NCBI GenBank assembly: GCA_030390025.1
Contig: CM059432.1
Coordinates: forward strand, 93,870,001-93,934,000
Direction: 5' to 3'
DNA: 64,000 bases
Origin: Squalus acanthias
Lineage: Eukaryota
Part shown: positions 1 through 21,567 of the stretch, piece by piece
Layout: every line of letters starts with the position of its first letter
Position numbering within the stretch: the first letter of the stretch is position 1
The notes under the pieces: model-generated
Databases searched by the model: none
Told to the model about the DNA's origin: nothing
Seen by the model: the letters and a program-made list of their open reading frames with translations, nothing else
Program-made: the position numbers and the translations under genes

Positions 1-848
1 AGGATGGTGAAATGGGCAGAAGCATGGCAGATGGAGTTCAATGTGGAGAAGTGTGAAGTGATGAAATTCTGAATGACTAATATGGAAAGACGGTATACTA
101 TAAATGGCACGATTTTGAAAATTGTAGATGAACAGAGACCTTGGTGTCCATACACAAATCCTTAAAGGTGGCAGGGCAAGTTGATAAGGTGGTTAAAAAA
201 AGCAAATGGGTTACTTGGTTTTATAAATAGAGGAATAGAATATAAAAGCAAATAGATCATGCTAGAATTTTATAAATCATTGGGTAGGCCTCAGCTGGAG
301 TATTGTGGACAATTCTGGGCACCACATTACAGGAAAGATGTAAAGGTCTTAGAAAGGTTACAGAGGAGGTTTAATAGGATGTTACCAGGGATGAGGGACT
401 TCAGTTATGGGGAGAGGTTGGAAAAGTTAGGACTGCTCTGCTTGGAACAGAGAAGGTTAGGAGGTGACCTAATAGAGGTTTTCAAGATAATTAATTAGAG
501 GTTTTGATAGAGTAGGTAGAGAAAAATTATTCCCTCTGGCAAGTGAGTCAATAACTAGAGTCACAGATTCAAAATCATTAGCAAAAGATCTAGAGGGAAG
601 ATGAGGAGAATTTTTTTTACTCAGAGTTGTCGGGATCTGGAACGCTCTACCTCAAAAGGTGAAGGAAGCAGATCCCATAAATAATTTTAAAAGAGAGTTG
701 GACAGATACTTGATGATGAGGAACTTGCAGGGTTACAGACTAAAAGTGGGGATGTGGGACTAAGCACAACTGCTCTTTCAAAGAGCCACCACAGACACAA
801 TGGGCCGAATTGCCTCCTTCTGTGCTGTAAGTTTCTATGATTCTATGA
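1..848 (+). mobile_element. CR1 LINE, 3' part (RT C-terminus and 3' UTR), decayed
   Basis: RPQLEYCGQFWAPHYRKD and EQRRLGGDLIEVFKI motifs; ends in a (TTCTATGA)2 tail. Confidence 0.9.
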
Positions 849-1072
849 ATGTACAGCTTGTTTGTGACCATCAGTTCCCTGCTGTACAGGTCAATACATA
901 CTTCCCAGAAAGCTAACCCAATACTTTCAATTTAAGGCAGTCCACCTGTCTCACCATCAATATTCAACCCTGAAAGGCAAATCTCAGGATGGCTTTGGAC
1001 CAATCAAATTATCCGCGTCAGCCATGGCTCATGACATCTCTGCAGTATCCCTGACATCAGCTAAACATGGTA

Positions 1073-1491
1073 CAGGAAACTTTCGTTTATCCGGCATCGA
1101 CGGGACCAGCGTGGTGCCGGTTTATCGAAAGTACCGGATAACGGAGAGTTATATCTACCGAGGCTATTTTTAACAAAGAGACTCCAGGCAGCGCGGGAGA
1201 ATCAACTCCTGCTACTGCAGTGTTTCAGACTTCCGACAGCGCCAGGAGGCTGAGTAGTGGCACTTTTGAAAAGTACCCCTACTGACTAAATCGGCGTTCG
1301 CGGACTCGGACTCGGGATCGGCAACATTGCCGGTTATTTGAGAGGAGTTTTCGGAGCACTTGGCGTTCGCGGAGACTCGACTGCGACTCGGCAACATTGC
1401 TGGTTATTTGAGAGGAGTTTTCGGAGGATGATTTTTGCCGGTTAAGCGAGAATTCCGGATATTTGGGTGCCGGATAAACGAAAGTTTCCTG
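1073..1491. mobile_element. Tc1/mariner (pogo/Tigger-like) MITE
   Basis: Perfect 24-bp TIRs CAGGAAACTTTCGTTTATCCGGCA, TA on both sides (1071-72, 1492-93), subterminal CCGGATA/CCGGTT repeats, CpG-rich interior suggesting youth. Confidence 0.8.
1293..1426. repeat. Two-copy ~69-bp tandem repeat inside the MITE
   Basis: GGCGTTCGCGGA...CGGCAACATTGC(C/T)GGTTATTTGAGAGGAGTTTTCGGAG occurs twice. Confidence 0.85.
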
Positions 1492-4400
1492 TACCATGTT
1501 TAGCTGATGTCAGGGATACTGCAGAGATGTCATGAGCCATGGCTGACGCGGATAATTTGATTGGTCCAAAGCCATCCTGAGATTTGCCTTTCAGGGTTGA
1601 ATATTGATGGTGAGACAGGTGGACTGCCTTAAATTGAAAGTATTGGGTTAGCTTTCTGGGAATAATTACCAGAATAATCAGTGATCAGTGGAATGTTGAA
1701 TCAGTATTCCAAGTATTTAGGAAGATCTGGGACCACCCTGCAGTACAGCCCAGGTAAGGTTTCAAAGATTGTTGTTGTGTGCTGTATGCTGCACAACGTT
1801 GCCTTGAAAATTTTATCATGAAATCCTCAGAGGGTGGCCTCTGAGCAATTTGGGGGGTCACTAATAAGAACAAGATGCGGATGAACATGCTGCAAAGCAG
1901 AACCTGGTGTCGGCTGTGAGAGCCACTCAGCAGCTCTCAAACAGGACACCTTTTAATGTGTAAATGTGGCCACTGCATTGTCCTGCCTACATCTTTCCAT
2001 TCCCTCTACAAATAGGCCTTCAATCTTACAGGCAAATCAAAAATATCACATTGCTAATGGCTGCTGAAAAATGCCTGCAAACTCTGCAAGAGCATTCCTC
2101 GCACACACAGCTTCAGTGCAACCTGATCTTTAACACCAAACCATGTTGTACATTTAAATGCCTGGTGTTTACTTCCATGTTGCTTTCCCTAGTAACAGTG
2201 TGTGGTGAATATGCAGTCGACCCTAACCTTGTGCTTCTTCTAGCTGCTACCTCAGTGGCAGCAGTATATGGTGTGGGTAGCTGTTGTGTGTTTATACAAG
2301 TCTCTTGATATTGAGGTAACCCTCTCTTCCCAGGAGCTGAGTTTGGAGATAGATCTGATGCATCTTACACAATTTCTGCTACGGTGTAGGCATTCTGGCC
2401 GTGTGTGTTTTCTGGAACATGTGCAGGCATCATGAGTGCTGGCATCGGGGGCCCTGAAAGTACTGAATCTCAACAGACAACACCATTATCTATAGCCACT
2501 TCAGCCATGTCCTACCCTCACCACTGAACCATCTGGTAACAGTCTTATTGGCAACCATGGGATCAAAGAACCCTGCCTCATCGCTCTCTCAAGCCAATCA
2601 CAAGCCTGCTGAAGCCAGAAGAGATAGCCCATTCAATTTTGGAATGCAAGGTCTCTACAGCAACAGCCTGTACATCTGTGGGAAAAGCACGGAATGTCTT
2701 TAAGGTCTGTCACATGGTGGGGGAATTGGGATGGCGGTTGGGGGGGGGTGGTCGGTGAAGAGGAGCTCTGCTGCAGATATCCCTGCAACACAAAGTCCCT
2801 GATTAGAGCATCCTTCTTTTAAAAGGTAGGCTCTTTGAGCTTGGGATCTTCAGGCTGATCAGTTGGGATGCAGTCCATGGTGGCCCAATGGATGACATGT
2901 TTCTCTTCCTCCTCTGCTATGACCAGCTATTCCTCTTCATTTGTGCTGTGTGTCACCCAGTGCCATCCCCACTGGCTCATTGTCTAACTCTTGGATGGAT
3001 ATAAATGAGCTGGTGCTTGCAAGGGTATAAAGTGAAGAGTGCACTGTGACTTAGTGACAGGCCCGGATGTACTGGGGCCTTGCTCTGTTTCCTGTGGCAC
3101 AGCTAGAGGGAAAAAAAAAAGACCTTCTGAGCAGCCTTCAAATATAACTTTCAGCAGAAGACTGGCATGGTAAAGTGCTTCAACAAATGTTTTGTTGCCA
3201 GTAAGTGAATGAGAGAATAGATTGAGAAGGAAGTGCAATAGAAGATTATCATAGCTTGTGCCAGTCCTCTTGTATCCCATCACCCAGCAACCTCTATGAC
3301 TTCCTTTCCAAGGATTTCCAGGGCTTTCTCCTTGTATAGGGTTAGAGGTATAATTTAGAAAGGCTGCCCCTTGGTTTTTTTTTTGTTATGGGCAGTCTTC
3401 TGCTGCAAACAGAGTACAATGAGCGAGAAGTTCCTATTGTCATGATGACACACAGTAATGCCCAAGTATTTGCATGCTGGCCATAGTGGCTGCCATGACA
3501 TGTATATACATCATGCAGCTACATTAGATTGTAGAGATCTGTTGACCAAAATGCAAGGATGAGTGAAGGAGAAGGGAAGACCAGGGGGTTCAAAGCACAC
3601 CCTCCTGCAATTAAAGTACTTTCAGACAGTGTGAGGGAAAAGTAATTGTAAGTGCCATACCTACTTAGTTGGCAGCATTAATGGAAGATAACAGTGTTTC
3701 CTCCTACCTTGGTTGACCTGGTAATGTCACTAAACTTCTACCTACATTTCTTCCAGGTACACAGGATGTTGCTCATAACACTGAAACTACCATTTGCATC
3801 TTGTCCCATTCTCCTTGGCTGTTATTCTTCGGAGCATGCAGTACTCCTGCCAAGGAGAGCTGCCTCCTCAGATTCATTTCCTCCAACGGAATCACTCCGG
3901 CACCATCGAAGAAATGGAGATCTTTCTACCCCCCTGTAATCCTTCCAGACATGACTATTTCGATAGAACTTTCAAATCATAATGCCTGTCCCTTTAAACT
4001 GCAACAGGACTTCAAATCCTACAGCAGCATACAATTTCCTACCCACCAACAAGCACACTCCCAAACACAGACAGTGTGTGTGCCTGGAGCTTGCTCATAT
4101 TATTTAAATGACACTGACCTCAAAAACATGCGTGGGGTCAGTGTCCAATTTCCAGTCGGACTTGTGTCCAAACAGAATATCTAATCCACTGTTTGTTCTG
4201 CTTTCCCACCAGTGCAGGAAAGACAATTATTTAATGAGTAGTCATTTAATCATTTGAACATGGCAGAAAAATCAGAGTATGCAATGTAGACATTAACTAC
4301 ATGTTCTATAACTTTCTACTTTTGACAATGAAACACAAAGTTACAGGGCCCTTCGATGAGTTGATGTGACTTGCAAATACCATCTCACGAAACTCAAAAT

Positions 4401-5689
4401 TGCAGCTTGAAGTATTCCTTTGATTGATTCTTTACTGATCAAGGAGGTTCATCTTACTATATACAATTTCTGGAAGTTCAAACTGTACTTCCAATCAACC
4501 TAACTACCTGTTAGCCAGTCACCATGGGATACCAAAGCTTAAAAAAGGGAGACAGACATGTAATATCAGTTATTTTTCCTTGCTCAATATTTCAAGAATC
4601 AACAGGGCAGAAATTTGGAAAGATCAGCTGCATCTGTTCAGTATTATCACTGGAAAGTACCAATTACTTTTGTGTTATGGGCAATTTTATTTAAATTTCA
4701 TCTTTTTGTCTGGAAAAATGCATAGCTGAAGGGTTTTGCTGTGAACCTCAAAAGACAAACATTTTGATAAAAATGCAAGCTGCTGTTTAAAAGAAAATAC
4801 TCTAAACAATAGCAGCATGCTATTATGGTATCGAGGGCTGTTCTGAACATAACTGGCTTCCACACCAAGTCTTTTTTCTTTTGTGAATACATTTTTAAAG
4901 TATTCTACCACTATGAAATTACTGAAGCTTACTAACATTTACAATCAAGTGTTGACAAGCCTCTCATTATCGCCCCTCCTTCCCCCCATCAGCTTCTACA
5001 GTGGGAAGTGAACTGTGTACTTCCAAGGCTTGAATAGAGGCAAGGTAAGATAGTAGACAGCATAGGAAAGCTGTAACTAGAACACTACTTCAGCTAAATT
5101 GTGAGAGTAGGGCAAGGGGACTGATGTCAGGAAGCTGTTCACAGAAAGATTGATCACCACATGGGACAAAGATCTGGGTAAAGATACCTGCCTTGCTACA
5201 GTACATTTAATTTGTAAGATGATTCACATTGCTGCAGAGTTTCTCCCCTCCCCATTGCTTTCAAGTACAATTAAGATGCATGCCTCCAGGACCAGTCGTG
5301 ATTGACAGAGACCGAAGTACTCCAAAAGCCAAATTATCACAATCACTTTCTGCTTCTTATATTTGCTTTCCTTTCCTGTGAAGCACGTCAAACAGTCACA
5401 GGCAATTTGGACTTAAAGACTCAGCTATCAAGTTTAAGTATTAAGATCTTCTCTCTTCTGGGTAATTTGAGCTGCTATACATCTGCAGTATCAATTTGTG
5501 TGGATAAACAAGAGATTTGACACTTGTGGGTATCATTGTTGATGTGCTTTAAGACAAAGTGAATAAAATATTTCTATGAAGTCATCCTGAATCTTTGAGG
5601 CTTTCAAAATACATAGAACTTCTGTCAACACAACAGGTGTAAACCACTTTGCTGTAAATTTCTACTCCTGAGTACTCTAAAGTACAGCA

Positions 5690-6130
5690 AGAAAGAAGAT
5701 CTTGCATTTAAATGGCACCTTATCATGTCTCTCAGAAACAGTCAAAGCGCTTCACACAGAATGAATTACATTGTGCAATCACTGGGGTAAGCTTTCGTCT
5801 TCAGCAGAGTTGTGTACACAGAGGACTGTATGTAGGGAATTAAGGTGCATGCCATGACTGCGCATCCAGAAAGATTTATCCTGCTGTTGTTATGTAGGGA
5901 AATACAGCAGCCATTTTGTACATAGCAAGGTCCCACAAACAGCAATAAGGCTGTTTATCTGGGTTTTTTTGGTGATGTCGGTCAAGGGAGAAATGTTGGT
6001 CATGACCCTGGGAGAACTCTTTGAATAAAGCCATTAGATCATTAATATCCACTTTAACAGGCAGGCTGTGTCTCAGTTTAACATCCTATATAAAGCACAG
6101 AACCTTGAAAAAGGCAGTATTTCCTCAGCA
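5690..6130 (-). mobile_element. Deu-domain SINE (SacSINE1/AmnSINE1-like), decayed
   Basis: Reverse complement resembles the 59477-59882 copy (CTTGCATTTA tail, AGCAAGGTCCCACAAAC, GGAGAACTC, CTCAGTTTAACATC). Confidence 0.6.
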
Positions 6131-6243
6131 ATCAGCCAATACTTGTAGCAAATATTTGGGGTCCCAGGAGAGAGGTGCTCAAAGACCTCCAACCATTTAC
6201 TCTTGTTTTATGTTTGATAATGCCATTGTTCGCTAAAAATATC

Positions 6244-6910
6244 GGGCCAGAAATTCGGCTGTTGTCAGGTGAGTACGCGCTGTGTACTCACCCGTAAGGC
6301 CACCTGAAGTGCCGGTTTCACGCATGCACTGCGCATGCGCGGGAAACCGGAACTTCCGTTCCCCTGAAAGAAGGGGTTCAGAAGTCGAACGCGTGCGCGG
6401 GAGAGGCTGCGCGCACGCAGCGAACTTCGTTTTTTTTTCAGGTTTCTCCGTGAGGGTAAGCATGGAGAAGCTGCACATTTAAAAAGGAGGCGCAAGGCCT
6501 GTTTTTAACAAGGTAAGTGGTTAATTAAGTAGAATTTAAACATTTTTCAAGAGGTTTATCTTTTTTTTTTACATACTTTAAAGAAAGGTAAGTTTATTCT
6601 TAGCACCGTTAAAAAGTTTAATTAATTTTTTCAAAAATTTAAATTTGTTTAAAGTAGTTAATTTATGTAATTTATAGTTATTTTAAAAATTTGATGGTTT
6701 TTTAAAAATTTATTTGAAGTTTTAGTGTGGTTTTGGGGTCGATCTCTATTCATAGATTTGACAGGTCTTCCTGTCAAATCTATGAATGAAAATTCCCTGC
6801 TACGATTGGCTCTCCATGGCCCACGTGATCCCAGGGGACGCTTTGAACTAACTGCGCCCCTGGGATACGCAAGCACTGCGCGCCGGCAGCTGCAGGAGGC
6901 CCAGGACTAG
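6244..6910 (+). mobile_element. Structured GGGCC-ended MITE, subfamily A, 3' TIR not found
   Basis: Starts GGGCCAGAAATT; highly similar to 13245-13771 and homologous to the 33430 and 37064 copies. Confidence 0.75.
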
Positions 6911-7479
6911 AGAGTACTGTTGTCAACGCAAGAAGCGCACTGACTGGACTCTGTCAAAGTAAAATGCCTGAAGAGACTGCAAGAAAAGTGTTAGTTTATA
7001 ACAAAATTAATGAAAAGGAGACCAGTTTGAATTGCTTTGCAACTTTAATGGCCTCCTTCTGTGCTATACTATTTTATGATTCTAACTTGACAGTTTGCTA
7101 TCACTTACATCTGTCACTAAGAAATAATAAAATTGCTTTGGGATTTAAATGTCAGAAATTTTAAAGTACTATGCAGATAAATAAGTCATTTTCTGCTGAA
7201 TAAACAGGAATTCATGCATTTAACAACAAATATTATGTTTCTTCCTCACTGTGTGAATATGCATGGTATAGTGTGCAATCTGATTGGCACAAAATCATCC
7301 CCTTGAACCCCACATTAAACTGAGGGTTTTGAGGACCGAAGGATCCTCTCACTTATTCAAAATGTGATTTTTGTTATTTTCCCTGATAACCTTGCCCCCT
7401 CCCGAAAGCTTTGATTTCTTGCTCAGGTGTGGGGGGGGGGGCCTAACAGCCGGGGCTGATCTTCTCCTTACCTGACCTA

Positions 7480-7710
7480 TACAACATGCAATTCATATCG
7501 GGATCAATTGGATAATCACCGGGAGCGGAAAGACCGCCTGATTTTCCCTCTCCTTTAGCTCAGGAGAGTCGAGGTCAATTGCAGTGATACTATGGCTGCC
7601 CGGTTGAGATCAGTTAATTCAGCGTAGACCAGGGATTGAACCTGGAACCTCCCTTGTGTATGGTTCAGTTAATCACTGGATAAACTCGTTGCAGCATTGG
7701 GGGAAGCCAA
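7480..7710 (-). mobile_element. tRNA-headed SINE fragment
   Basis: Reverse B-box-like CCAGGGATTGAACCTGG; body similar to 19430-19800. Confidence 0.5.
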
Positions 7711-7938
7711 GCTGTGTATCTTTATAGAACCTGCCACTGAACTAGCTTTTTCTAATAATGAGCACTTTAAAGTAGAACTAGTGAAACAGAGAGTCATAGA
7801 TAACGAGGTAGAATATTATCCACACAGATCCTTGGGACCAATAGAGCTATAAAATAAATTAGACAGAATTTTAAAAAAATCTGGCCATACTTTGTATTTC
7901 GATGCAGAAATTTCACCATAATTCTCACAAGACACACT

Positions 7939-8042
7939 GGCCGAGGTTTTCTGCTTCTGCGCTCACCACCCATGGTTCTCCGCCCATTAAGGTGAAAGGT
8001 CAGAAAATTGTGGGTGGCAAATAGAGTTGGAAAACCCTGGCC
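7939..8042. mobile_element. 104-bp mini-MITE with GGCC ends
   Basis: TIR GGCCGAGGTTTTC / GAAAACCCTGGCC (11/13), ACT duplicated on both sides. Confidence 0.6.
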
Positions 8043-9125
8043 ACTTACTTTGGTCCAATTTCTTATACTGAGCTTAAACACTGCATCTTCCACTTCCTTT
8101 CTTTCCCCCATCCCCCTCCCAATAAACGAAGTTAATTAAATACATAAAACAGGGTTATAGAGGGATGGCAGTGCAGGTGGTGTGCCGCAACTGCAGCATG
8201 TGGGAGTTAGTGGAGAGCATCACGAGGAACTTCAACTCAGAGTTGTTGAGCTGGAGTCCGAGGTGCAGACATTGTGGGGCATTAGGGAGGGGGAAGCGTT
8301 ACCTTGACACTTTGATCCAGGAAGCAGTAACACCCCTTAGGTTAGGTAGTAGTACAGGTCTGGTTAGTGGCCAGGGACAGGAGGGTGTGACTGCGTCTCA
8401 GGCAGGTAAGGGGACCACAGTTGCAGTGCTGGAGGAGCCTCAGCCTTTGCCCTTGTCCAACAGGTATGAGGTTCTTGCTGCCTGCGTGGATGAGGGCAAA
8501 GTCTGCAGGGTGGATGAGCAAACTGACCACGGCACGATGGTACAGGAGGCCATTCCAATGGGGGGAGTGAAAAGGAATGTTATCGTGGTAAGGGACAATA
8601 TAGGTCAGGAGGATAGATACTGTTCTCTGCAGCCGTGACCAGGAGTTCTGAAGGCAGGGTTAAGGATATCTCCTCGCGGCTGGAGAAGAATTTGGAGTGG
8701 GAGGATCCAGTTGTCGTGGTCCACGTAGGAACCAACAACATAGGTACAACTAGGATGAGGTTCTGCTGAGGGAGTTTGAGGAGCTGGGGTCCAAATTAAA
8801 ACTCAGAACTTCAAGGGTCTGGATTGGTAATAGGGCATAGGGACAAGCAGATCAGAGAATTAAATGCGTGGCTCAAAGAGGGGTGTGGGAGGAAGGGGTT
8901 TCAATTCATGGGGCACTGGCACCAGTACTGGGGAAAGAGGGAGCTGTTCTGTTAGGACGGACTCCAGTTAACCGGGCTGGAACCAGTGTCCTAGCGAAAT
9001 CAAATAACTAGAGCTGTAAACTAAAAGGGGTGTGGGGGAAGAAGTGGTCAGGTGAGGGGAAATTTAGAAATATGAAGAGAAAAGTCAAGGCAATGGAGCA
9101 GTGCAGCAATTTGGGTAAAAATAAG

Positions 9126-9869
9126 AGCCCTGAATTTGCGGTCGGTATGACACCGTACTCTGAGTACGCCGTCATACCACTTTGGAAACTGACCGCAACT
9201 TCGGGATTTGGTGCAGGCGCAAGCGGAAATCCCGAAGTTGCAGTCTGTCAATGACAGCTCCGAAACTGGCTGCGCTGTGCACCCCCACCATACAGAGCCG
9301 ACAATCAGTGAAATCTCGTAAATCATTCAAACTGACAAAAACTTCGGCTCTTCGTCAGTAAGTACGCTGTTAAATTTACCACCAACAGTTGGACTCAAAG
9401 GGATTTGATGTAACTGGGGTTTTAACAGCGCATTGACTGCCAAACAAATGTTAAGGGCCTGGAAAACTAATTTTAATTTAATCTTGTGCTGTGTGGAATT
9501 TGTTCATTTTAATAAAATTTCAATTTTTTTTTTTGAGTTTGTGCATCTTTATTTCAGGTTTGCCTTTTCCCCATGTGAGAACCCCAATCTTTCTTTGGTT
9601 CTCTCTAACTATTTCAAAAAGTTAGAATTTTTAGGGCTTACCCATTTCCCTTGTTCGCTGTGAGAATTCTGCTTTTTGATTGGCTGCTTAGACAGCCTGT
9701 TGACGTCACAGCATCTCACAAGGGGATCCCCATTATGTTCCGTTGAATTGAATTCAAGGTCAGAAAACCCGAAATTCTCGTCACAGGGATTGCGAGATCG
9801 CTGTGCGGAGCGTACTTCGGGGCCAGCAGCTAATGCCTTCACTTCGCTGCTGGCTGCAAATTCTGGGCC
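9126..9869 (+). mobile_element. Structured MITE, subfamily B, inserted in CR1
   Basis: aGCCCTGAATTTGCGG ... GCAAATTCTGGGCC, AAG on both sides; homologous to the 27431 and 49016 copies. Confidence 0.8.
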
Positions 9870-12228
9870 AAGAGTGTTACAGGAAGGGACAGAGAGTTTA
9901 ATGGTAATAGTGCATCAGCAAAGAAGATGAAAGCAGGGAATATTGGTCAAAGTTAAAATTAATTGCTCTTTATCTGAACACCAAGTATTCGTGACAAGAT
10001 AGATGAATTAGTGGCACAAATAGAGTTAAATGGCTTTGGCCTAATAGGCATCACAGAGACGTGGTTGCAAGGTGACCAAGGCTGGGAATTAAATATTCCA
10101 GGGTACTTGACATTTCAAAAAGACAGGCAGAATGGAAAAGGGAGGGGGTGGGTGGTTAGCCCTGATAATAAAGGATGACATAAGGACAGTTGTGAGAAAG
10201 GGTCTTGGCTCGGAGGATCAGGACGTAGAATCAGTACGGGTGGAGATAATAAATAAAAAGGGGCTGAAAACATTGGTGGGAGTAATTTATTGGGCCCCCA
10301 AACAGTAGCTATACAGTTGGACAGAGTATTAATCAACAAATAATAGGAACTTGTAACAAAGGTAATGCAATAATCGGAGGGGACTTTAATATTCATATAG
10401 ACTGGGCATAAAAATTGGTAAAGCTAGTCTGGAAGATGAGGTCATGGAAAGCATTCAAGACAGTTTCCGAGAACAATACGTGGTGGAACCAACCAGGAAA
10501 CAAGCTACTTTAGATCTTTGTGTATTGTGTAATGAGACAAGGTTAATTAGTAATCTCATAGTAAAGGATCCTCTGGAGAAGAGTGATCATAATATGATGA
10601 GTATTTCACTCTCAAAGTCGATGTGAAATTCTAAGTGCGAAACTACAGTCTTAAACTTAAAAAAAGTCAATTACATAGGTATGAGGGGCGAGTTGGCTAA
10701 GATAGATTGGGAAATTAGATTAAAAGAATAAATAAGCAGTGGCAAACATTTAACAAAATATTCCAAAATTCTCAATGAATATACATTCCATTGAGAAATA
10801 AAAACTCCATGGGAAAAGTGATCCATCCATGGCTAAAGGATGACCAAAAAATTGATAAGGGAAAAAATAGAATGAGAGTAAATGAGCAAGAAATATAAAA
10901 ACAGATTGTAAGAGCTTCTACAAGTATGTAAAAAGAGTAACAAAAGTAAGCATTGGGACCCTTAGAGGCTGAGACAAGAGAAATTATAATGGGGAATAAG
11001 GAAATGGCAGAGACTTTAAACAAATATTTTGTATCTGTCTTCACAGTAGAAGACACAAAAAGCATACCAAAAATAGTGGGGAACCAAGGTGCTAATGTGA
11101 GTGAGGAACATAAAGTAATTAAGATCAGTAGAGAAAAAATACTTGAGAAACTAATGGGACTAAAAGCCAACAAATCCCGTGGACCTGATGGCCTACAACC
11201 TAGGGTTCTAAAAGAGGTGGCTGGAGAGATAGTGAATGCATTGGTAGTCATCTTCCAAAATTCCCTAGATTCCAGAACTATCCCAGCGGATTGGAAGGTA
11301 GCAAATGTAACCCCACTATTCAAGAAAGCAGGGAGAGAGAAAACAGGGAACTACAGGCCAGTTAGCCTGAGATCAGTTATTGGGAAAATGCTGGAATCCA
11401 TATTAAGGAAGTGGCAACAGGGCACTTAGAAAATCATAACATCATTAGGCAGAGTCAACATGGTTTTATGAAAGAGAAATTGTGTTTAACAAATTTATTA
11501 GAGTTTTTTGAGGATGTAACTAGCAGGGTAGGTAAAGGGGAACAAGTGGACATAGTACATTTGGATTTCCAAATGGCATTTGATAAGGTGCCACCTAAAA
11601 GGTTGCTATGCAAGATAAGGGCTCATGGGGCTGGGCTAATATATTATGTTAAGAGGATTGGTTAACAAACAGAAAACCGAGAGTAGGGATAAATGGCTCA
11701 TTTTCCGGTTGGCAGGCTGTAACTAGTGGGGTGCCACAAGGATCAGTGCTTGGGCCTCAGCTATTTACAATCTATATTAATGACCGAGATGAAGGGAGAG
11801 AGTGTAATGTATCCAAGTTTGCTGACGATACAAAGCTAGGTGAGAAAGTAAGCCGTGAGGAGGACACAAAGAGCCTGCAAAGGGATATAAACAGGTTAAG
11901 TGAGTGGGCAATGGGTGGCAGATGGAATATAGCGTGGGGAAATGTGAGGTTATTCACTTTGGCAGGAAGAATAGAAAAACAGGATATTTTTTAAATGCTG
12001 AGAAACTATTAAATGTTGGTGTTCAGAGAAAGTTAGGTGTCCTCGTTAAGGAAACACAGAGTTAGCATGCAGCTACAGTAAGCAATTAGGAAGGCAAATG
12101 GCATGTTGGCCTTTATTGCAAGGGGGTTGGAGTAAAAGAGTAAGGAAGTCTTGCTACAATTGTACAGGGCTTTGGTGAGAGCACACCTGGAGTACTGTGC
12201 ACAGTTTTGGTCTCCTTATCTTAGGAAG

Positions 12229-12425
12229 TCGCACAACACCAGGTTATAGTCCAACAGTTTTATTTGAAATCACAAGCTTTCGGAGTTACTGCTCCTTCGT
12301 CGGGTGACGAAGGAGCAGTAACTCCGAAAGCTTGTGATTTCAAATAAAACTGTTGGACTATAACCTGGTGTTGTGCGACTTCTCAATTTTGTCCACCCCA
12401 GTCCAACACCGGCATCTCCGCATCA
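12229..12425. mobile_element. Penelope-like terminal fragment arranged as a perfect 77-bp-arm palindrome
   Basis: Arms 12225-12301 / 12306-12382, loop GGGT; 12-bp TSD TATCTTAGGAAG (12217-28, 12426-37); GACGAAGGAG..CTCCGAAAGCTT hammerhead-like motif followed by AATAAA. Confidence 0.75.
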
Positions 12426-12447
12426 TATCTTAGGAAGGACATACTTG

Positions 12448-15400
12448 TCGTGATGTAGTGATGGAGGAGCCTCAGCCCTTTACATTGTCCAACAGGTACG
12501 AGGTACTTTCTACCTGTATGGATGAGGAAAAGGACTGCAGGGAGGATGGGCAAATTGACCATGGCACTGTGGTACAGGGGGCCATCCAAGTGGGGGGAGA
12601 AGGAAGGAATGTGGTAGTATTAGGGGACAGTATAGTCAGGGGGATAGATACTGTTCTCTGCAGCCGCGAAAGACTCCTGAAGGCTGTGTTGCCTGCCCAG
12701 TGCCAGGGTTAAGGATATCTCCTCGCGGCTGGAGAAGAACTTGGAGTGGGAGAGGGAGGATCCAGTTGTCATGGTTCATGTAGGAACCAACGACAAAGGT
12801 AGAACTAAGAATGAGGTTCTGCTAAAGGAGTTTGAGGAGCTAGGGTCTAAATTAATAAGCAGAACCACAAGAGTAATAATCTCTGGGTGACTACCTGAGC
12901 CACGCGCAAATTGGCATAGGGTCAAGCAGATCAGAGATGTTAAATGTGTGGCTCAAAGAGTGGTGTGGGAAAAAGGGGTTTCAATTCATGGGGCACTGGC
13001 ACCAGTACTGGGGAAAGAGAGAGCTGTTCCGTCGGGACGGGCTCCACTTAAACCAAGCTGGGACCAGCGTTCTGGCGAATCGAATAACTAGGGCTGTAAA
13101 CTAAAAAAAGGTGCGCGGGGGGGGTGGGGGGAGAGAAAGAGGTCAGGTGAGGGGAAATTTAGAAATCTAAAGTGAAAGGTCAAGGCAACAAAGCAGTGTA
13201 GCGATTTGGGTAAAAATAAGCAGAGCGTGACAGGAAGGGACAGAGGGCCAGAAATTCGGCTGTTGTCGGGTGAGTACGCGCTGTGTACTCACCCGTAAGG
13301 CCACCTGAAGTGCCGGTTTCCTGCATGCACTGCGCATGCGCGGGAAACCGGAACTTCCGTGCCCCTGAAGGGAGGGGTTCAGAAGTCGAATGCGTGCGCG
13401 GGAGAGGCTGCGCGCACGCAGCGAACTTCGGGGGTTTTTTTCAGGTTTCTCCGGGAAGGTAAGTATGGAGAAGCTGCACTTTTAAAAAGGAGGCGCAAGG
13501 CCTGTTTTTAACACGGTAAGTGGTTAATTAATTACAATTTAAACATTTTTTCAACAGGTTTATCTTTTTTAGATACTTTAAAGAAAGGTAAGTTTATTTT
13601 TAGCACCGTTAAAAAGTATAATTAATTTTTTCAAAAATTTAAATTTTTGTTTGAAGTAGTTAATTTATTTAACTTAGTTATTTTTAAAATGTGATTTTTT
13701 TTTCCCCAATTTATTTGAAGTTTAAGTGTGGTTTTGGGGCCGATCTCTATTCATAGATTTGACAGGTCTTCCAATCTTGTATTGTGTAATGAGACAGGGT
13801 TAATTAGCAATCTCATAGTAAAGGATCCTCTGGGGCAGAGTGATCATATGATAGAATTTCACATTAATTTTGAGAGTGACTTGCTTAAGTCCGAAACTAG
13901 AGTCTTAAACTGAAATAAAGCCAATTACATAGGTGTGAGGGACGAGTTGGCTAAGGTAGATTGAAAAAACAGATTAAAAAGGTATGGCGGTAGATAAGCA
14001 GTGGCTAGCATTTAAAGAAATATTTCATAATTCTCAACAAAAATACATTCCATTGAGAAACAAAAACTCCATGGGAAATGTGATCCAACTGTGGCTAACT
14101 AAAGAAGTTAAGATAGCATTAGATTGAAAGAAGTAGTTTATAATGTTGCAAAGAATAACAGCAAGCCTGAGGATTGAGAGAGTTTCAGAAACCAGCAAAG
14201 GTTGACCAAAAAATTGATAAAAAGGGAAAAAATAGTATGAGAGAAAACTCGCAAGAAATATAAAAGCAGATTGTAAGATTTTCTACAAGTATGTAAAAAG
14301 GAAAAGAGTAGCAAAAGTAAACATTGGTCCCTTAGAGGCTGCGACAGGAGAAATTATTATGGGGAATAAATATTTTGTATCTGTCTTCACAGTAGAAGTC
14401 ACAAAAAGCGTACTAAAAATGATGGGGAACCAAGGGTCTAATGAGGGTGAGGAACCTAACGTAATTAATATAAGTAGAGAAAAAGTACTAGAGAAGCTAA
14501 TGGGACTAAAAGCCGACAAATCCCCTGGACCTGACGGCCTCCATCCTAGGGTTCTAATAGAGGTGGCTGAAGAGATAGTGGAAGCATTGGTTTTGATCTT
14601 CCAAAATTCCCTAGATTCTGGAATGGTCCCAGCGGATTGGAAGGTCGCAAATGTAACACTGCTATTCAAGAAAGGAGGGAGAGAGAAAACGGAACTACAG
14701 GCCAGTTAGCCGGACATCAGTCGTCGGGAAAATGCTGGAATCCATTGTTAAGGAAGTGGTATCAAGTCACTTAGAAAATCATAACATGATTAGGCAGAGT
14801 CAACATGGTTTTATGAAAGGGAAATCGTGTTTGACAAATTTATTAGAGTTTTTTGAGGATGTAACTAGCAGGGTAGATAAAGGGGAACCAGCGGATGTAG
14901 TATATTTGGATTTCCAAAAGGCATTCGATAAGGTGCCACATAAAAGGTTATTACACAAGATTAGGGCTCATGGGGTTGTGGGTAATATAGTAGCATGGAT
15001 AGAGGATTGGTTAACGGACAGAAAACAGAGAGTAGGGGTGAACAGATCTTTTTCAGGTTGGCAGGCTGTAAATAGTGGGGTGCCGCAAGGATCAGTGTTG
15101 GGGCCTCAGCTATTTACAATCTATATTAATGACCTAGATGAAGGGACTGAGTGTAATGTATCCAAGTTTGCTGATGATACAAAGCTAGGTGGGACAGTAA
15201 ACTGTGAAGAGAACACAAAGAGTCTGCAAAGGGATATAGATAGACTAAGTGAGTGGGCAGTAAGGCGGCAGATGGAGTATAATGTAGGGAAATGTGAGGT
15301 TATTCACTTCGGTAGAAAGAATAGAAAAACAGAATATTTTTTAAATGGTGAGAAACTTTCAAATGTTGGTGTTCAGAGAGATTTGGGTGTCCTCGTGCAA

Positions 15401-16070
15401 GAAACACAGAATGCTAGCATGCAGGTACAACAAGCAATAAAGAAGACAAATTGCATGCTGGCCTTTATTCCAAGAGTAAGGAAGTCTTGCTACAATTGTA
15501 TAGGGCCTTGGTGAGACCACACCTGGAGTACTGTGCACAGTTTTGGTCTCCTTATCTGAGGAAGGATATATTTGCCTTGGAGGCGGTTCAATGAAGGTTC
15601 ACTAGATCGATTCCTGGGATGAGGGGGCTGTCCTATGATGAGAGATTGTGTAGAATGTGGCTATACTCTCTGGAGTTTAGAAGAATGAGAGGTGATCTCA
15701 TTGAAACATGCAAGATTCTGAAGGAGATTGACAAGGTAGATGCTGAGAGGTTGTTTCCCCTGGCTGGAGTGTCTAGAACTAGGGGGCATAGTCTCAGGAT
15801 AAGGGGTAGGCCATTTAAGACTGAGATGAGGAGGAATTTCTTCACTCAGAGGGTTGTGAATCTTTGGAATTCTCTGTCCCAGAGGGCTGTAAATGCTGAG
15901 TCTTTGAGTATATTCAAGGCTGAGATAGATAGATTTTTGGACTCATGGGGAATCAAGGGATATGGAGATCGGGCGGGAAAGTGGAGTTGAGGTCAATGAT
16001 CAGCCATGATCTTACTGAATGACGGAGCAGGCTCGAGGGGCCGTATGGCCTACTCCTGCTCTTATTTCTT
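12448..16070 (+). mobile_element. Second CR1 LINE nested inside the first, same orientation
   Basis: Starts within ORF1 (EEPQPFTLSNRYEVL, VVLGDSIVRG), RT ORF 14732-15514 with FADD, 3' UTR to 16070; probable TSD ATACTTG/ATCCTTG. Confidence 0.88.
13245..13771 (+). mobile_element. Structured MITE, subfamily A, 3' truncated
   Basis: Near-identical to 6244-6770; breaks at the apex of the internal hairpin and joins CR1 sequence. Confidence 0.8.
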
Positions 16071-17015
16071 ATCCTTGCCTTAGAGGCCGTGCAACAAAAG
16101 TTCACTAGATTGATCCCTGGGATGAGTGCGTTGTCCTATGAGGAGAGATTGAGTAGATTGGGCCTATACTCTCTGGAGTTTAGAAGAATGAGAGGTGATC
16201 GCATTGAAACATGCAAAATTCTGAGGGAATTGACAGGGTAAATGCTGAGAGGTTGTTTCCCCTGGCTGGAGTGTCTAGAACTAGGGGGCGTAGTCTCAGG
16301 ATAAGGGGTCGGCCATTTAAGACTGAGATGAGGAGGAATTTCTTCAGAGGGTTGTGAATCTTTGGACTTCTTTACACCAAAGGGCTGTTGATGCTGAATC
16401 ATTGAATATATTCAAGGCTGAGATAGACAGATTTTTGAACTCTAATGGAATCAATGGATACGGAGATCGGGCGGGAAAGTGGAGTTGAGGTCGAAGATCA
16501 GCCATGATCTTATTGAATGGCGGAGCAGGCTCGAAAGGCCGCATGGCCTACTCCTGCTCCTAATCTTTAGTTCTTAGTTCATCACTCCTCCTTTCACTTT
16601 GAATTTTCCTCTCTCCTGTTCCATGTTCAACTCTCCTCGAGACACTCTTGTGTGAGGGGTACTATACAAATGCAAGTTGTTGTTCAGTTATTCTTCACTC
16701 TCATGGGTTAGGGTTGTGCAAGATCAATTACATTTTTTTAAATTACTGTTTGATATCCTGTAAATAGTATACTTTCATTTAAAAAATTGAGTCTGATCCA
16801 CCCATCTTTGGTTTGGTTGGTTTCTGCAGAACCAATTTAATTTGGTGAATGCTGTTAATTTTAATTAAAAGTAACTATGATGGGATGATAATTAGGAGTT
16901 TCATTGGCATGCTTTTGAAGGGAGAAATCTTGGGAAAGAACATTGTCAAAACATGACAAATTTTGACAATACAAGTCTCCGCTGTTAGTTATAAAGAAAA
17001 CATTATTTTGCTCAC

Positions 17016-17091
17016 CTGGTGATGTCCTCAGAGAGCTGGGCAGGATCCGGAGGGTAAAACTTTACATTGAATGAAAAGTGCCACAAACCAC
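17016..17091 (-). CDS. EPB41L3: EPB41L3 coding exon (FERM N/central lobe junction)
   Basis: 76 bp, atatag| ... CAG|GTGAGC. Translates (S)[24 protein letters not shown](R); phase 1-2, compatible with the 43-bp exon. Confidence 0.95.
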
Positions 17092-18289
17092 CTATATGGA
17101 AACAAATCATTCTTCAAACAAAAGCAAAATGATTTAAGTATAGTTTTTAAATCATTTAAAAAATTCTCCAAGGACTACTTTTTCCAGTACAAAAAGTCCA
17201 GGATTTTTTGACTTAAAGAATATCAATTTCAAAATGATAAATGAGAATCCTAACAAATAAATTACAAACACTCATTGGTTAACCTTGTCACCGTTTGCCT
17301 TTAACCAGCTCTACAGTAAATGTGACTACCAACTTAACAGCATTTAGTTAATTTTCTCCACATATGCATACAGCCTTGTGGTGTTAAGTCATTAATCACC
17401 TGAGCAGTAGATAGGAGAACACAGTCTCATAATTCTTTCTTTGTGGAAACATTTTCAGTCATTGAATTCATGTGGTACATCTCTCTCAAAATTGTGTACC
17501 TGATCTATTTGTAAAACAAATACTTCACGGTGCTGCCAGTTTACATTATGTTCAGTAAGAAAATTCACCTTTATCTAGTTCTCCTTCTCCCTGAACAAGA
17601 AAGTTCTGTATTGGACAAGCACTACCATGGCTGGAGCCAAGTAAGTATAAGTTAAGTTTAGTTCCAATAGTAATTGTAAACACTTCTTTAATAAAATATC
17701 ATCTGTTTGCTTTCATCTACTTTATTAGGAGTGGGCAGCTGCTCAATGGAGTACAGTAATTGGAGCCACGAATGTGTCGGATTCTGACTCTAACATCATA
17801 ATTAGTTTGACAGGCAAAGGAGGGTGATGGATGTCCAAGAGATCTGCAGTATCACATGGAGTGACTTCACCTCTTAAGACATGAGATGGCTGCCTCCAAT
17901 ATTTTGCTGACTTAGTGCTAATTTTGGTTTTGCTCCTGGAATGGCAAAATAGCAGTTCAACTGCTACAAAATGGTTCATGATTTAAATCTGGCTATGATG
18001 GCAATGTAACAGAACAACAAATTAAAAGTCTGATGTACTTGCAAAAAGCAAGTTCATCACTACATCAGCATGCACTAGTGGCCAGGATGAGAGAAACTAC
18101 TGAAATGAGAAAGATATGATTGATATCAATTGCATTTGGAATAAGTATCATTAAAGGAAGATATATAAAAAGAAAAAAAGCTGCAGATGCTGTAAATTTG
18201 AAATTAAAACAGAAAATGCTGGAAATACAGAACAGGTCAGTATAAAGATGCAAGACAGTTTAACACTTTGTGTGTCACCTTTTTTAATT

Positions 18290-19320
18290 TCTTAAAACCC
18301 CTCATCTTTTTGAACAGCTCCAATAGATCACCTCTTACGTTTCTCTGTTCTAGTGAAAAGAGATGAGTTCTGTGGTCTCTCATCCCTGGTGATATCTTAC
18401 TAAATCTCTTCTGCACCCGATCCATGGCTTTGATATGCTTCCTAAAGTAGGGCATCCAAAACTGGGCACATTATTCTAACTGCAGCTTAACTAATGAGTT
18501 GTATATGTTTAACAGTACCTCTGCTTTTGTACTCTACGCCCCTACTTTCAAAACTAAGGATCCCACGTACTTTTTTAAAAAATATAGCAACTGCTTTAGC
18601 ACCTTGTGCCCCACACTTTTAATAAGATTTGTCTATCTGCACCCCTAAGTATCGCTGCTTTTCTGATCCATTTCAAGTTTTACCAATTAGTGTACATTTC
18701 CTCTCCTTGTTCTCCCTTCCCAAATTTGTCACCTCATATTTCTCCACATTAAAGTTTCATCTGACAGTTACCTGCCCCTTCTCCTTGGAGAAGAGAAGGA
18801 TAAGAGGAGATTTGATAGAGGTGTTTAACATCATGAAGGGTTTGGATAGAGTAAATAAAGAGAAACGGTTTCCAATGGGTGAAGGGTTGATAATGAGAGG
18901 CCACAGATTTAAAGTGATTGGCAATGATCCAGAGGCAACATGAGGAAAAACTTTTTTACACAACGAGTGATTAGGATTTGGAATGCACAGCCTGATAGGG
19001 TGGTGGACACTGAGTCAATAGTAGCCTTCAAAAAGGGAATTGGATAAATACTTGAAAGAGAAAAAAATTGCAGGGGTATGTGGAAAGAGTGGGGGAGTGC
19101 ACTAACTGGATTGCTCTTCAAAAGAGCCAGCACAGTCTTGATGGGCCTAAGGGCCTCTTTCTGTGCTGTACTATTCTATGATTCAAACTACTAGCCCATC
19201 TATATCTGCCTGAACTTGCTTATAGTCCTATTCACTATTAACCATACTATTTTTGTATTATCTGCAAATTTTGATACTCCCACCCTTATAGCTGAGACCA
19301 GATCATTGATATATACACTA
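18290..19320. mobile_element. Old CR1 fragment (-) interrupted by a CR1 3' fragment (+, ~18775-19185)
   Basis: PYFRKHIKAMDRVQKRF on -; FSLEKRRIRGDLIEVF and TTCTATGATT tail on +. Confidence 0.7.
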
Positions 19321-19429
19321 CTAAATTGCCCATAGTGAGTTAGTGAATATATAGTTTTTCTTCTATAAAAATAGCATTCAAGTTGAAAGAGATACTGTTG
19401 AGACCACCCAAAGCTAGGAGGGTCTATGG

Positions 19430-19800
19430 AGCAATGCTCTCAGCACCAACCACATCATGTGCCTGCCAGGTGCTCATGCCTTTCCTGATGCAGCCATTCC
19501 CCTGAAGAGTTCCACAGGCACGTGAAGCAGTCTGATACTCAGCCAAGTAACTATTCGTCATGTGTGAGCATGGGCATCACTGTTGGCATTGATGTACTGG
19601 CAGGTTATTTGTGGGTATCACAGCTGTGCACACTCAACGTGTACACATTTGCTATGTCACTGGATAGTGAGCGGGAGCAGGAATCATGGCTGATATTTCC
19701 CATCCCCAAGAGGCCAATTGTAGCGTCCCCAGCGCTGCCCCAACTGAGATCATGGATCGAAGCAGAAATCAAAACTAGGAGCCTCCGGGTCTTTGTGGGT
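19430..19800 (-). mobile_element. SINE fragment, same family as 7480-7710
   Basis: Shared GGGAGC..GCTGAT.TTTCCC..GAGGCCAATTG..GCTGCCC..TGAGATCA core. Confidence 0.45.
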
Positions 19801-21045
19801 CAGCAACACTTCAGATGGTGCACGATCAAAGTTTTAATTCTAAGTATAAGATAATACTGCACTAACTGCTGTGACCTTACAGTACTGATGATTGAGTTCT
19901 TGTAAATGCAATGGTGGAGCAGAAAGAGAGAGGTACAGTCCGCCAGTGTCAGAGAATAGAGGGGTGAGCTGGATAATAGGGATGGATGAGGTTGCAAAGG
20001 TTGCGTGGAGTGAGATCATGAAGGGATTTGTAAATAAGGGTGAGGAATTTGTAATCAGTGTGTTGACAGACTGGTAACCAGCTTAGATCAGGAAAGACAG
20101 GATTTAGAGGTGAGCAAGACTTATTGTTTGATGAGTTGGAGTTTGTGGGGGGCCTGCAAGGAGAGCATTGGAAAAGTTAAGCCTACGGGTGACAGGCACT
20201 GATGTGAGTTTCAGCAGCAGTGTGGCTAACGTAGGGGTGAAGGCAAGTATTGTTGTGGAAGTGGAAACAGGAGCTCTTAGGTGATAGATAAGATGTGGAG
20301 ATTGAATCTCAGTTTAAGATTGATTAAAGTAATACTTTTAAGCAAGAATAGAAGAACATTCCCTGTTGTCCCTCCTTTTGTTGGTCATGCAACAGGGAAT
20401 GCAAACAGGAACCACAACAACAGGTCTCACAATGGGGCCATGGTGAGTCTTGTTTGATGTCACTGCCATGTTACTTCCTGAAAATTCTGTTTATATTAAA
20501 AATAAGGACGTACAATTAGAAGACATTTTATCACAATTATTTTGATATTACACAATTCCCTTTATGTTTAATTTCCCAGGCATTCTCTTACTCTCCCTTT
20601 CCTTAATTACTTTGCAGACCTATCTGAGTAATGCTTGTGTGGGTTTGCTGCATCGTGATCATTATGCTCATTTACCATTTCATCCATTCCTGCTTCAGCA
20701 GCTTCCTATTAAGTAGGCTTGGGATTAAATGGCAATCATAATTTCAATATAGCAGACAGAAGAACATTATTCAGTAGCTGCTGTCTTTTGTAAGAGATAA
20801 GAAAATATACCAGGCATTTTACCCGTTGAATGCTCTAAACTTTAATCGAAACAAAAGCATTAACTGGAAAAATGAAATAAGCAAAAGATAAAACCCTTTG
20901 AAGGCTGCTTTATTGTTGAAAGCCCCAACAAAATGTGTGAATGGAAAGAATATCCTGGTTAAACAAAAATAGAAAGCTACTTCTGTATCTTTCAACCGTC
21001 ATTGCATGGGAGCTGCATTTCAAGTCATTTGTTAAATGTACTTAC

Positions 21046-21088
21046 TTCGGATTTGCTTTTTAATTTCCTTGGCTGGGTCCAACCAGTT
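21046..21088 (-). CDS. EPB41L3: EPB41L3 coding exon (FERM)
   Basis: 43 bp, tttcag| ... GAA|GTAAGT. Translates NWLDPAKEIKKQIR plus 1 nt; phase 0-1. Confidence 0.95.
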
Positions 21089-21567
21089 CTGAAATACAAC
21101 ATTTTAATATGTTTAGATTCCAGACTATATTTGTAAAATTAAAGAACCTAATGCATTACACATCAATCAGGTCTTTTCTTACCATTTACCTCAAAATGAA
21201 AGTCAGTTTAATGCAGGATGGCAAACACCCAAGCTGCAAATGGGTTACCCCAAATCAAGTCACAAATTAGTGAAAACAAAACTTCCTTTATTGAGACATC
21301 ATGGTGAAGGTCAAGACACACTGTGGAGGACACCAGTAAGATCGACAAGTACAAGAGACTAAACGAGGTAATTCAACATCCAAAGATTAGAGGATACCAA
21401 AATCAGGTAGATTCTAGAAGGAAAGGATAACCGAGGAAGGCAAGAAGTTTTGAATTCATTGGAAATGAAAAGAAAATACTTGTACTTAATCCCAATTTAG
21501 AACATATGAGAGTTGAAATGGAGACATTGTTTGCCTGTGACCATAACCTTGGGGAACATTAATTATT

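Follow-up and report, generated by a model that had tools for sequence, protein, structure and literature searches.

The window, as the whole 64 kb stretch of DNA analysed here is called, carries a MITE with a segment of host sequence on its left that is present again, in inverted orientation, on its right, raising the question of how this arrangement arose. In a self-comparison, the arms at 902–1096 and 1468–1662 were found to be exact reverse complements over 195 nt, 371 nt apart, and this pair tops all exact inverted repeats of the 64 kb, the runner-up being 77 nt. The sequence-only reading had described 902–1072 as mirrored exactly at 1492–1662, and the arms are indeed 100% complementary in the window. 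The predicted 195 bp helix folds in silico at −498 kcal/mol. Inspection of the window at the outer ends, 902 and 1662, revealed neither a TIR motif nor a clean target duplication. The relevant features are as follows.

845–1072, plus strand: left part of a decayed Harbinger (HARBI1-like) transposase, broken at the TA at 1071–1072 (tblastn)
902–1070, plus strand: host flank, template of the right arm, exact reverse complement of 1494–1662
1071–1072, no strand: left copy of the TA target site, a single TA at this place in organism B
1073–1491, no strand: non-coding MITE of 419 bp, Tc1/mariner-pogo-like, with TIRs and a TA on both sides
1073–1096, plus strand: left TIR, 24 bp, which with the TA makes up the 26 bp primer homology
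1293–1426, plus strand: internal direct repeat of ~65 bp (1293–1356 and 1362–1426), 88% identical (blastn self-match)
1468–1491, minus strand: right TIR, 24 bp, a perfect match to the left TIR
1492–1493, no strand: right copy of the TA target site and first switch point, after which (1493) the MITE-only contig departs from the window
1494–1662, minus strand: inverted copy of 902–1070, 169 bp, known only from the window
1663–1666, plus strand: 4 nt filler at the return junction, which with the 3 bases before it repeats 1672–1678
1667–1806, plus strand: right part of the Harbinger transposase (tblastn, Pfam, S1 contig)
17016–27352, minus strand: three EPB41L3-type FERM exons (27352–27248, 21088–21046 and 17091–17016)

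The host sequence was identified by tblastn with P0001, which matched 845–1051 (E 1e-5, with an in-frame stop within the alignment) and 1690–1806 (E 7e-10). One of six fragments also matched Pfam DDE_Tnp_4, with an E value of 0.0077 that is under the curated cut-off for this family. The first of the FERM exons, at 27352–27248, matches Band 4.1-like protein 3 (E 4e-13), and short-motif scans of 1–17000 found no convincing further FERM exon. With three EPB41L3-type exons upstream on the minus strand, the earlier placement of the locus in an EPB41L3 intron is upheld, and by inference the arms lie in the intron that follows these exons.

The site was then compared with public sequencing-run contigs. 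Five of 24 candidate runs, all from organism A, the species of the window, contained at least half of the query words, while 16 had a share under 0.2, and four runs were compared, namely X1 and X4 (one sample, S1), X5 (a second sample) and X6 (organism B). None of the candidate runs listed was an RNA run, which says nothing about expression. About 55% of X5 was read and gaps in its coverage carry no weight; no contig over the site was among those listed for it. The compared region was 1097–2600, and the left junction was therefore read via the mirror image of the arm; the arm contig of S1 presumably has left flank as its opening 78 letters.

Three allele states were found. Organism B, a relative that is ~4% diverged, has the empty site, in which the left flank reaches 1667 through 18 letters and no MITE is present. 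S1 carries a MITE-only allele in both X1 and X4, with the TA duplicated and the joint from 1493 to 1667 again made through 18 letters. When read by hand in frame, these letters bring back the Y-x-x-x-H-x-x-T-R spacing found in P0001, indicating that they are ancestral host sequence. Relative to the MITE-only allele, the window carries an additional 169 bp of inverted left flank plus a 4 nt filler, and these stand in place of 18 nt of host sequence that it has lost. Of the 195 bp of each arm, 169 bp is thus host flank, which organism B has a single time at its empty site, and when compared with the MITE-only contig the window allele equals the ancestral left side, the reverse complement of nearby sequence and the ancestral right side, bar the filler. 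The comparison with another haplotype and a relative that had been proposed therefore yielded both a MITE-only and an empty allele, and these sequences support an order in which the inverted copy arose after the MITE had inserted. The claim that the transposase resumes after the right arm with a few codons missing was also borne out, the loss being exactly 18 nt, though the point of resumption is 1667 and not 1663, as the filler at 1663–1666 is absent from the MITE-only contig. An interpretation of 1663–1664 as a displaced right TA with nothing lost was ruled out, as the MITE-only contig has 18 more nucleotides.

The window junction at 1662/1663 was crossed by no contig among those listed for X1, X4, X5 and X6. 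In S1, the left-arm contig is continuous over 901/902 and the right contig is continuous into 1667, with 0 of 191 letters differing between the S1 contig and the flank at 902–1070. The arm/flank depths in S1 were 11.6/10.4 and 13.7/11.3, where a hand estimate gives an expected ratio of ~1.3 if the copy were heterozygous and 1.7 if homozygous. In the 934 bp of flank, the S1 contig and the window differ at three positions, and at the two of these that are listed, 1890 and 2536, the outgroup agrees with the window and S1 differs. This indicates that the window represents a distinct, accurately read haplotype. S1 is then another haplotype, and the absence of the copy from it is no refutation of the window allele.

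The copy had been called very recent on account of the 100% identity of its arms. However, 0 differences in 171 positions is compatible with up to 1.7% divergence, and dating from arm identity by itself was rejected. The conclusion that the copy is young stands instead on the existence of another haplotype of the species that lacks it.

The element itself has the properties expected of a MITE, being short and non-coding, with TIRs, a TA duplication relative to the empty site, and homogeneous copies at unrelated sites; its earlier description as a MITE lying at a TA inside a decayed Harbinger transposase, with TIRs and a TA on either side, is thus confirmed. No ORF of at least 100 aa lies wholly within 1073–1491, Rfam gave no matches in 600–2400 at E values up to 1, and no second copy of the TIR was found in the window with up to 5 mismatches allowed. 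The 24-base TIR pattern had 0 matches in viral contigs and 0 in metagenome contigs. CCGG-centred motifs are present at both subtermini (1091, 1117 and 1134; 1438, 1455 and 1470), with one extra at 1330, and the resulting seven in the MITE correspond to 16.7 per kb versus 0.3–0.5 per kb elsewhere in the window. A TA target site is characteristic of the Tc1/mariner superfamily, and the TIRs presumably resemble those of Tigger. The subterminal motif repeats are compatible with the pogo/Tigger branch, which is a candidate assignment alongside other Tc1/mariner branches. Emigrant, a pogo-like MITE of Arabidopsis (Loot et al. 2006, PMC1636448), is likewise described as a short, non-coding and high-copy element whose TIRs are short and whose subterminal motifs are repeated.

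In X1, the summed depth of the MITE was 2e5–8e5 versus 10.4 on the flank, four to five orders higher, a value that does not equate to copy number. Contigs at least 99% alike accounted for 842 of 2029 MITE contigs in X1 versus 33 of 1259 in organism B, indicating that in organism A the MITE belongs to a young subfamily with a very high copy number. Past 1493, the other copies have flanks unrelated to that of the window (41, 44, 30 and 79 contigs, with a consensus agreement of 0.35–0.38).

These flanks bear on whether a larger, multicopy foldback element spans 902–1662, with the 195 bp arms as its genuine TIRs. Only the shape, long perfect arms flanking a spacer, recommends this, and it is hardly credible. 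The arm is single-copy, with a depth of 11.6 in its middle (1567–1572) in X1, and it occurs once and in place in the empty site of the outgroup, whereas other MITE copies exit at 1493 and positions 902 and 1662 lack a clean duplication. A long-TIR foldback element of the Galileo or FB type was accordingly rejected, as these positions are not termini and the arm is not dispersed according to the S1 depth. The sequence-only reading had asked whether the arms were the normal TIR of a multicopy family, and they are not; its suggestion that long TIRs grow by capturing flank is not supported either, as the ends of the element remain at 1073 and 1491, beyond which lie a single-copy arm and outer ends with no TIR motif.

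The inverted copy begins exactly at the 26 bp formed by the TIR and TA, which is also the longest match of the right end of the MITE to 850–1439. The duplex of the left TIR has a predicted energy of −32.8 kcal/mol (DNA parameters). At the return junction, the 18 nt loss and a 7 nt match located 6–12 nt downstream may reflect alternative end-joining of the polymerase theta type. A match of this type was seen for 1.4% of random fillers here and 0.8% of random junctions (a post hoc comparison over 7 bases), and the filler is possibly a templated insertion from that downstream sequence.

On balance, we lean towards a real, young, single-locus allele that formed in two steps, MITE insertion followed by TIR-primed inverted copying with end-joining. 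A pogo/Tc1-mariner-type MITE entered a TA in the dead Harbinger transposase, duplicating the TA. A break would then have occurred at, or no more than 18 bp from, the right end of the MITE, the cut perhaps being made by the transposase of the family; recent activity of that enzyme is plausible given how young the subfamily is in organism A. The strand that terminates in the right TIR and TA would have become single-stranded and paired with the left TIR and TA (26 bp, with a 371 nt loop), either on its own strand, as a fold-back, or on the sister strand, and a polymerase would have copied 169 nt of the left flank in reverse. The new strand, once freed, would have been end-joined to the right flank with the loss of 18 nt and the gain of a 4 nt filler, probably templated 6–12 nt onward. 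A mirror route, in which the right end copies from 902 onward and anneals via the TIR, would give an indistinguishable product. The insertion at the TA and the outcome of the second step are read from the alleles themselves, while for the break, the transposase cut and the single-stranded intermediate the evidence is the final sequence, from which we infer the route.

Published work offers support for parts of this route. At yeast breaks, fold-back at an existing inverted repeat is reported to copy 10 to >150 bp, with joining at 0–5 bp of microhomology (PMC11724301), and in flies templated fillers mark alternative end-joining following transposon excision (PMC2895639). Counting against a fold-back, short template switches that distinguish human and chimpanzee look inter-strand, and that study reports no evidence for intra-strand fold-back among them (PMC5453318). 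With the copy starting exactly at the TIR and TA, and with three ordered allele states, the fold-back or template switch primed by the TIR that had been suggested from the sequence is still the best reading. The locus looks like a one-off repair or copying scar primed by the mirror-image ends of the element, rather than a novel type of mobile element. The perfect 195 bp stem is a passive scar and the MITE ends are unchanged, and the arms should therefore remain if the MITE moves.

A real allele could also have formed by a replication-fork template switch of type 3-2-1-4, needing neither a break nor a transposase, with exit at 1493, opposite-strand copying from 1070 to 902 via the TIR homology, and return 18 nt downstream. 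We regard this as unlikely, though it has precedents, as this order and its mirror account for 31% of 794 high-confidence human–chimpanzee events (PMC5453318) and for an inversion in rice a template switch facilitated by a MITE has been proposed (PMC5724284). The orientation of the MITE interior is apparently kept in S1 and the window, a weak indication that is read at 1466–1493, 2 bp past the TIR. However, the 4 nt filler demands an additional slip beyond a plain four-point event, and a 169 nt tract with a 371 nt loop is probably long for the class. About as unlikely is an assembly or library artefact, in which the locus really carries the MITE-only allele and an assembler, a gap filler or a chimeric read, misled by the TIR and TA, copied the left flank. 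Both informative conspecific runs, which come from one sample, are MITE-only at single-copy depth, the return junction is uncrossed among the contigs listed and the arms are 100% identical; if S1 were the assembled individual, an artefact would be probable for the right arm. Set against this, S1 is another haplotype by its three flank differences and the outgroup bases at both listed sites, and contigs prove presence rather than absence, the junction being marked by just 34 distinct 31-mers. The window also contains no N and sits 91 Mb or more along its piece, suggesting a chromosome-scale assembly, and a fold-back chimera would be expected to end the molecule rather than rejoin the right flank with an 18 nt loss and a filler.

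Aberrant transposition, the other route that had been put forward, is very improbable. Identical TIRs permit the pairing of ends on sister chromatids, as established for Ac/Ds and P, and the identical TIRs here could have paired in this way, so that in an alternative (hybrid-element or sister-chromatid) transposition the right end would have joined the inverted left flank of the sister, with a second break 169 bp off being repaired. However, both MITE ends are on the original TA, 1662/1663 is a host-to-host joint with a filler and with neither an element end nor a new target duplication, and two more coincidences would be required. An atypical Ds element with an adjoining 598 bp inverted repeat is known in line ET500 (Langer et al. 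2007, PMC1978519) and resembles the window in that the structure adjoins a TIR. However, that repeat was derived from the donor T-DNA and lies inside the target duplication, unlike the window, and was left behind in 43 of 47 excisions; Ds is also a hAT element, whereas the window element is a TA-targeting MITE. Its authors suggested that such a structure can seed new mobile repeats (PMC1978519).

The closest systems to the TIR-primed copying that we favour share some of its steps. In the yeast fold-back inverted insertions (Yu et al. 2024, PMC11724301), as proposed for the window, an existing inverted repeat on the side of the break primes synthesis, the inverse copy is 10 to >150 bp and the displaced strand is joined with little microhomology. 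However, the primer there is an imperfect 10 bp with a 41 nt loop at an induced break, whereas the window has a perfect 26 bp TIR and TA, a 371 nt loop and what appears to be a natural germline allele. The 3-2-1-4 switches (Loytynoja and Goldman 2017, PMC5453318) share the switch order, the perfect inverted repeat and the small loss at the return point, but that screen left out copied fragments that were repeat-masked and favoured switches between strands that lacked prior homology, and the window differs in a first switch at transposon TIR homology and a return with filler. For Galileo of Drosophila mojavensis (Marzo et al. 2013, PMC3573991), one TIR was similarly proposed as template in the repair of the other, with synthesis running on past the repeat and lengthening it; there, internal sequence was recruited and the longer repeat is inside the element and mobile with it, whereas in the window the repeat is lengthened outward, by host flank beyond the element ends.

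None of the papers listed in a literature search describes outward, inverted copying of flank primed by the TIR of a MITE, though older P-element and Tam3 work may contain such cases. Possible examples are niv-525 of Antirrhinum and Mu killer of maize. The mechanism is known both at breaks in yeast and among template switches in primates, and its transposon-primed outward form is absent from the papers listed.

If real, the locus is a clean natural example for which both precursor states, the empty site and the MITE-only allele, are available, and it shows that the short TIRs of a MITE can prime the duplication of host DNA in inverted orientation, with a deletion and a filler left behind. Were it an artefact, it would point to misassembly at short TIRs. 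A single locus shows no function, and the general question is how frequently the ends of MITEs give rise to perfect hairpins in the host genome. That TIR-primed outward copying of flank is a recurrent class of mutation here, making hairpins of host DNA available for editing or small RNAs, is a speculative and rather unlikely proposition. If it were true, each copy of this young, very high-copy MITE would be a built-in fold-back primer, intronic or exonic DNA beside MITEs could be turned into long perfect hairpins, and the Harbinger-derived stem could work as a putative hairpin that silences related elements. With MITE copies in the thousands, fold-back repair caused by a TIR pair could then be counted directly in a vertebrate germline.

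The window sequences 902–1096 and 1468–1662 were compared and found to be exact reverse complements of 195 nt each, separated by 371 nt, confirming the perfect arms described in the sequence-only reading (195/195 nt complementary). No other exact inverted repeat in the 64 kb is as long, the runner-up being 77 nt.

Inverted-repeat features of the window
1073–1491: MITE, 419 bp, non-coding, perfect 24-bp terminal inverted repeats (TIRs), TA either side
12225–12301 and 12306–12382: second perfect inverted repeat, 77-bp arms, 4-nt loop

A CCGG-centred motif occurs seven times in the MITE, with three close to either end, a density of 16.7 per kb versus 0.3–0.5 per kb elsewhere in the window. The 77-bp inverted repeat sits in an insert of ~200 bp that interrupts a CR1 copy (12217–12437) and is flanked by a 12-bp direct repeat (12217–12228 and 12426–12437); we take this insert to resemble an end of a Penelope-like element that is truncated and inverted.

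A search of sequencing runs with words from the window gave 24 rows, five of which held at least half of the words, all from the same species (organism A; 2 samples). Contigs of four runs, X1 and X4 from sample S1, X5 from a second sample and X6 from a relative (organism B), were aligned to window 1097–2600. In S1 (X1 and X4), a 4360-nt contig ran from the MITE right end through the TA at 1493 into 18 letters that are missing from the window, and then from 1667 onward, while a 269-nt contig matched the arm over 191 letters with 0 differences and continued unbroken beyond the equivalent of 902. The S1 allele is therefore an ordinary MITE-only allele. One X6 contig lacks the MITE and runs from the left flank, which ends at the TA, through 18 letters to 1667, and is an empty site; over 1126 aligned bases, organism B carries 45 substitutions relative to the window (4.0%). 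For X5, ~55% of which was read, none of the contigs listed lay over the site. Relative to the MITE-only allele, the window allele thus lacks 18 nt and has gained an inverted copy of 902–1070 and a 4-nt filler (1663–1666). The loss reported previously was seen, but the transposase resumes at 1667 rather than ~1663, and six codons' worth is missing rather than a few. Reading in frame by hand shows that these 18 letters bring back the Y-x-x-x-H-x-x-T-R spacing seen in P0001, a HARBI1-like protein.

The inverted copy is truly present in the assembly and is probably present in the animal too. The main result against it is that the S1 contigs are unbroken and the arm-to-flank depth ratios are 1.12 and 1.21, where a hand estimate predicts ~1.3 for a heterozygote and 1.7 for a homozygote, plus a break at 902; these argue against S1 carrying the window allele, and no contig among those listed for the four runs crossed the 1662/1663 junction. 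However, that junction is marked by only 34 distinct 31-mers, and contigs lose variants. Over 934 bases of flank, the S1 contig and the window disagree at 3; two of these sites are listed (1890 and 2536), and at both the outgroup, organism B, agrees with the window against S1. The window is therefore a different, accurately read haplotype. The window also contains 0 N and is located 91 Mb or more into its piece, and a fold-back chimera would not be expected to return to the right flank with a short deletion and a filler. An assembly or library artefact is thus an improbable source of the window allele. The filler and the 3 preceding bases repeat 1672–1678. Random 4-nt fillers placed at this junction gave such a match in 1.4% of 200,000 trials, and those placed at random junctions in 0.8%; the comparison is post hoc and concerns 7 bases.

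The MITE family is plainly abundant in organism A, as summed depth in X1, which does not equal copy number, was 2e5–8e5 on the MITE versus 10.4 on unique flank. MITE contigs at least 99% alike made up 842/2029 of those aligned in A (X1) versus 33/1259 in B, indicating that the family is young in A. From 1493 on, other MITE copies no longer follow the window but continue in unrelated flanks, as seen in sets of 41, 44, 30 and 79 contigs with a consensus agreement of 0.35–0.38. Mid-arm depth in X1 was 11.6, and neither a TIR motif nor a clean target duplication was found at the outer ends, 902 and 1662, in the window. The possibility, named beforehand, that the arms are the normal TIRs of a multicopy long-TIR element was rejected on these grounds. 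In organism B, diverged relatives gave almost no cover at 1352–1402 (depth 6.8 versus 3e5 in A), and the second internal repeat unit may therefore be specific to the A subfamily. The letters at 1227 and 1361 are nearly private to the window's MITE copy. Single contigs link 1175 to 1262, and 1171 to 1224, via other letters, pointing to related families with common ends but different interiors.

The inverted copy arose after the split from B and after MITE insertion, and is not in every haplotype, an order of states that supports its description as very recent. Arm identity alone is less restrictive, as 0 differences in 171 bp allows a divergence of up to 1.7%; the probability of zero differences is 0.001 if the arms are as old as the A–B split and 0.58 at haplotype-level divergence.

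The TIR-primed fold-back or template switch proposed from sequence remains the best reading, as the switch begins at the 26-bp TIR plus TA, the longest homology available to the MITE right end (duplex −32.8 kcal/mol). The event copied 169 nt, lost 18 nt beside the TA and closed the gap with filler. A break at the MITE right end, perhaps cut by transposase, would have been followed by the MITE becoming single-stranded across its length, TIR pairing and synthesis, and the new strand would then have been released and end-joined. The same product at yeast breaks is primed by a 10-bp repeat, with copies of 10 to >150 bp (PMC11724301), widely spaced inverted repeats fold back when single-stranded (PMC10164571), and transposon-induced breaks in flies are followed by templated fillers (PMC2895639). 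In replication terms, the window allele belongs to the 3-2-1-4 class, which together with the mirror class accounts for 31% of 794 human–chimp events, although those events appeared inter-strand (PMC5453318); break repair and fork switching cannot be separated from one allele. Aberrant or alternative transposition, also suggested earlier, is unlikely to have made the copy, as both MITE ends still abut the TA of the original site and the new junction joins host sequence to host sequence. At the return junction, a short stem with 6-bp arms and a 9-nt loop forms within 1654–1674, and 1666–1674 matches 902–910 at 8/9 bases; either feature may have guided the second switch.

The sequence hosting the MITE is, judged by protein similarity, a decayed Harbinger transposase. 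Of 7 candidates, the query 1678–1818 matched one, a shark protein annotated as 'putative nuclease HARBI1' (P0001), and this protein mapped back onto 845–1051 and 1690–1806. This match and the CR1 content suggest that the host genome is shark-type. The relic seems to reach 2300 or beyond and includes multicopy patches at 1709–1810 and 2219–2269. A joint omitting 175 bases (2046–2222) in X1, X4 and X5 contigs probably comes from a paralogous Harbinger copy.

Coding features of the window
27352–27248, minus strand: FERM exon, EPB41L3-type
21088–21046, minus strand: FERM exon, EPB41L3-type
17091–17016, minus strand: FERM exon, EPB41L3-type
52018–53331, minus strand: LINE reverse transcriptase open stretch, 437 aa
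40780–41877, minus strand: LINE reverse transcriptase open stretch, 365 aa
23033–24001, plus strand: LINE reverse transcriptase open stretch, 322 aa
14657–15514, plus strand: LINE reverse transcriptase open stretch, 285 aa

The protein match to EPB41L3 comes from exon 27352–27248 alone (Band 4.1-like protein 3, E 4e-13, versus protein 4.1, E 2e-4), and the three exons together fit EPB41L3. As the FERM domain is still incomplete at 17016 and short-motif scans gave no convincing candidate for the next exon in 1–17000, the MITE locus would be intronic, in agreement with the placement in EPB41L3 made previously. A minus-strand transcript folded in silico forms an uninterrupted 195-bp helix (−498 kcal/mol). 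The window also has many imperfect inverted LINE pairs and the 77-bp perfect hairpin, so intronic dsRNA is predicted not to be special to the MITE site. Many CR1 copies in the EPB41L3 transcript are arranged as imperfect inverted pairs.

Galileo TIRs elongate by taking in internal sequence, through a proposed mechanism in which one TIR serves as template to repair its partner (PMC3573991), and a Ds with an adjoining 598-bp inverted repeat left the repeat behind in 43/47 excisions (PMC1978519). Galileo extends inward, whereas the window event is its outward counterpart. No MITE-primed outward inverted copy was found in the literature searched, most subscription journals being outside its reach. 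As copying was outward, the arms lie outside the MITE. The suggestion that foldback elements grow here by capturing flank is not supported, as no capture into a mobile unit was seen. The most plausible reading of the structure is a young scar left by TIR-primed inverted duplication, of a known class but with an unusually complete allele series.
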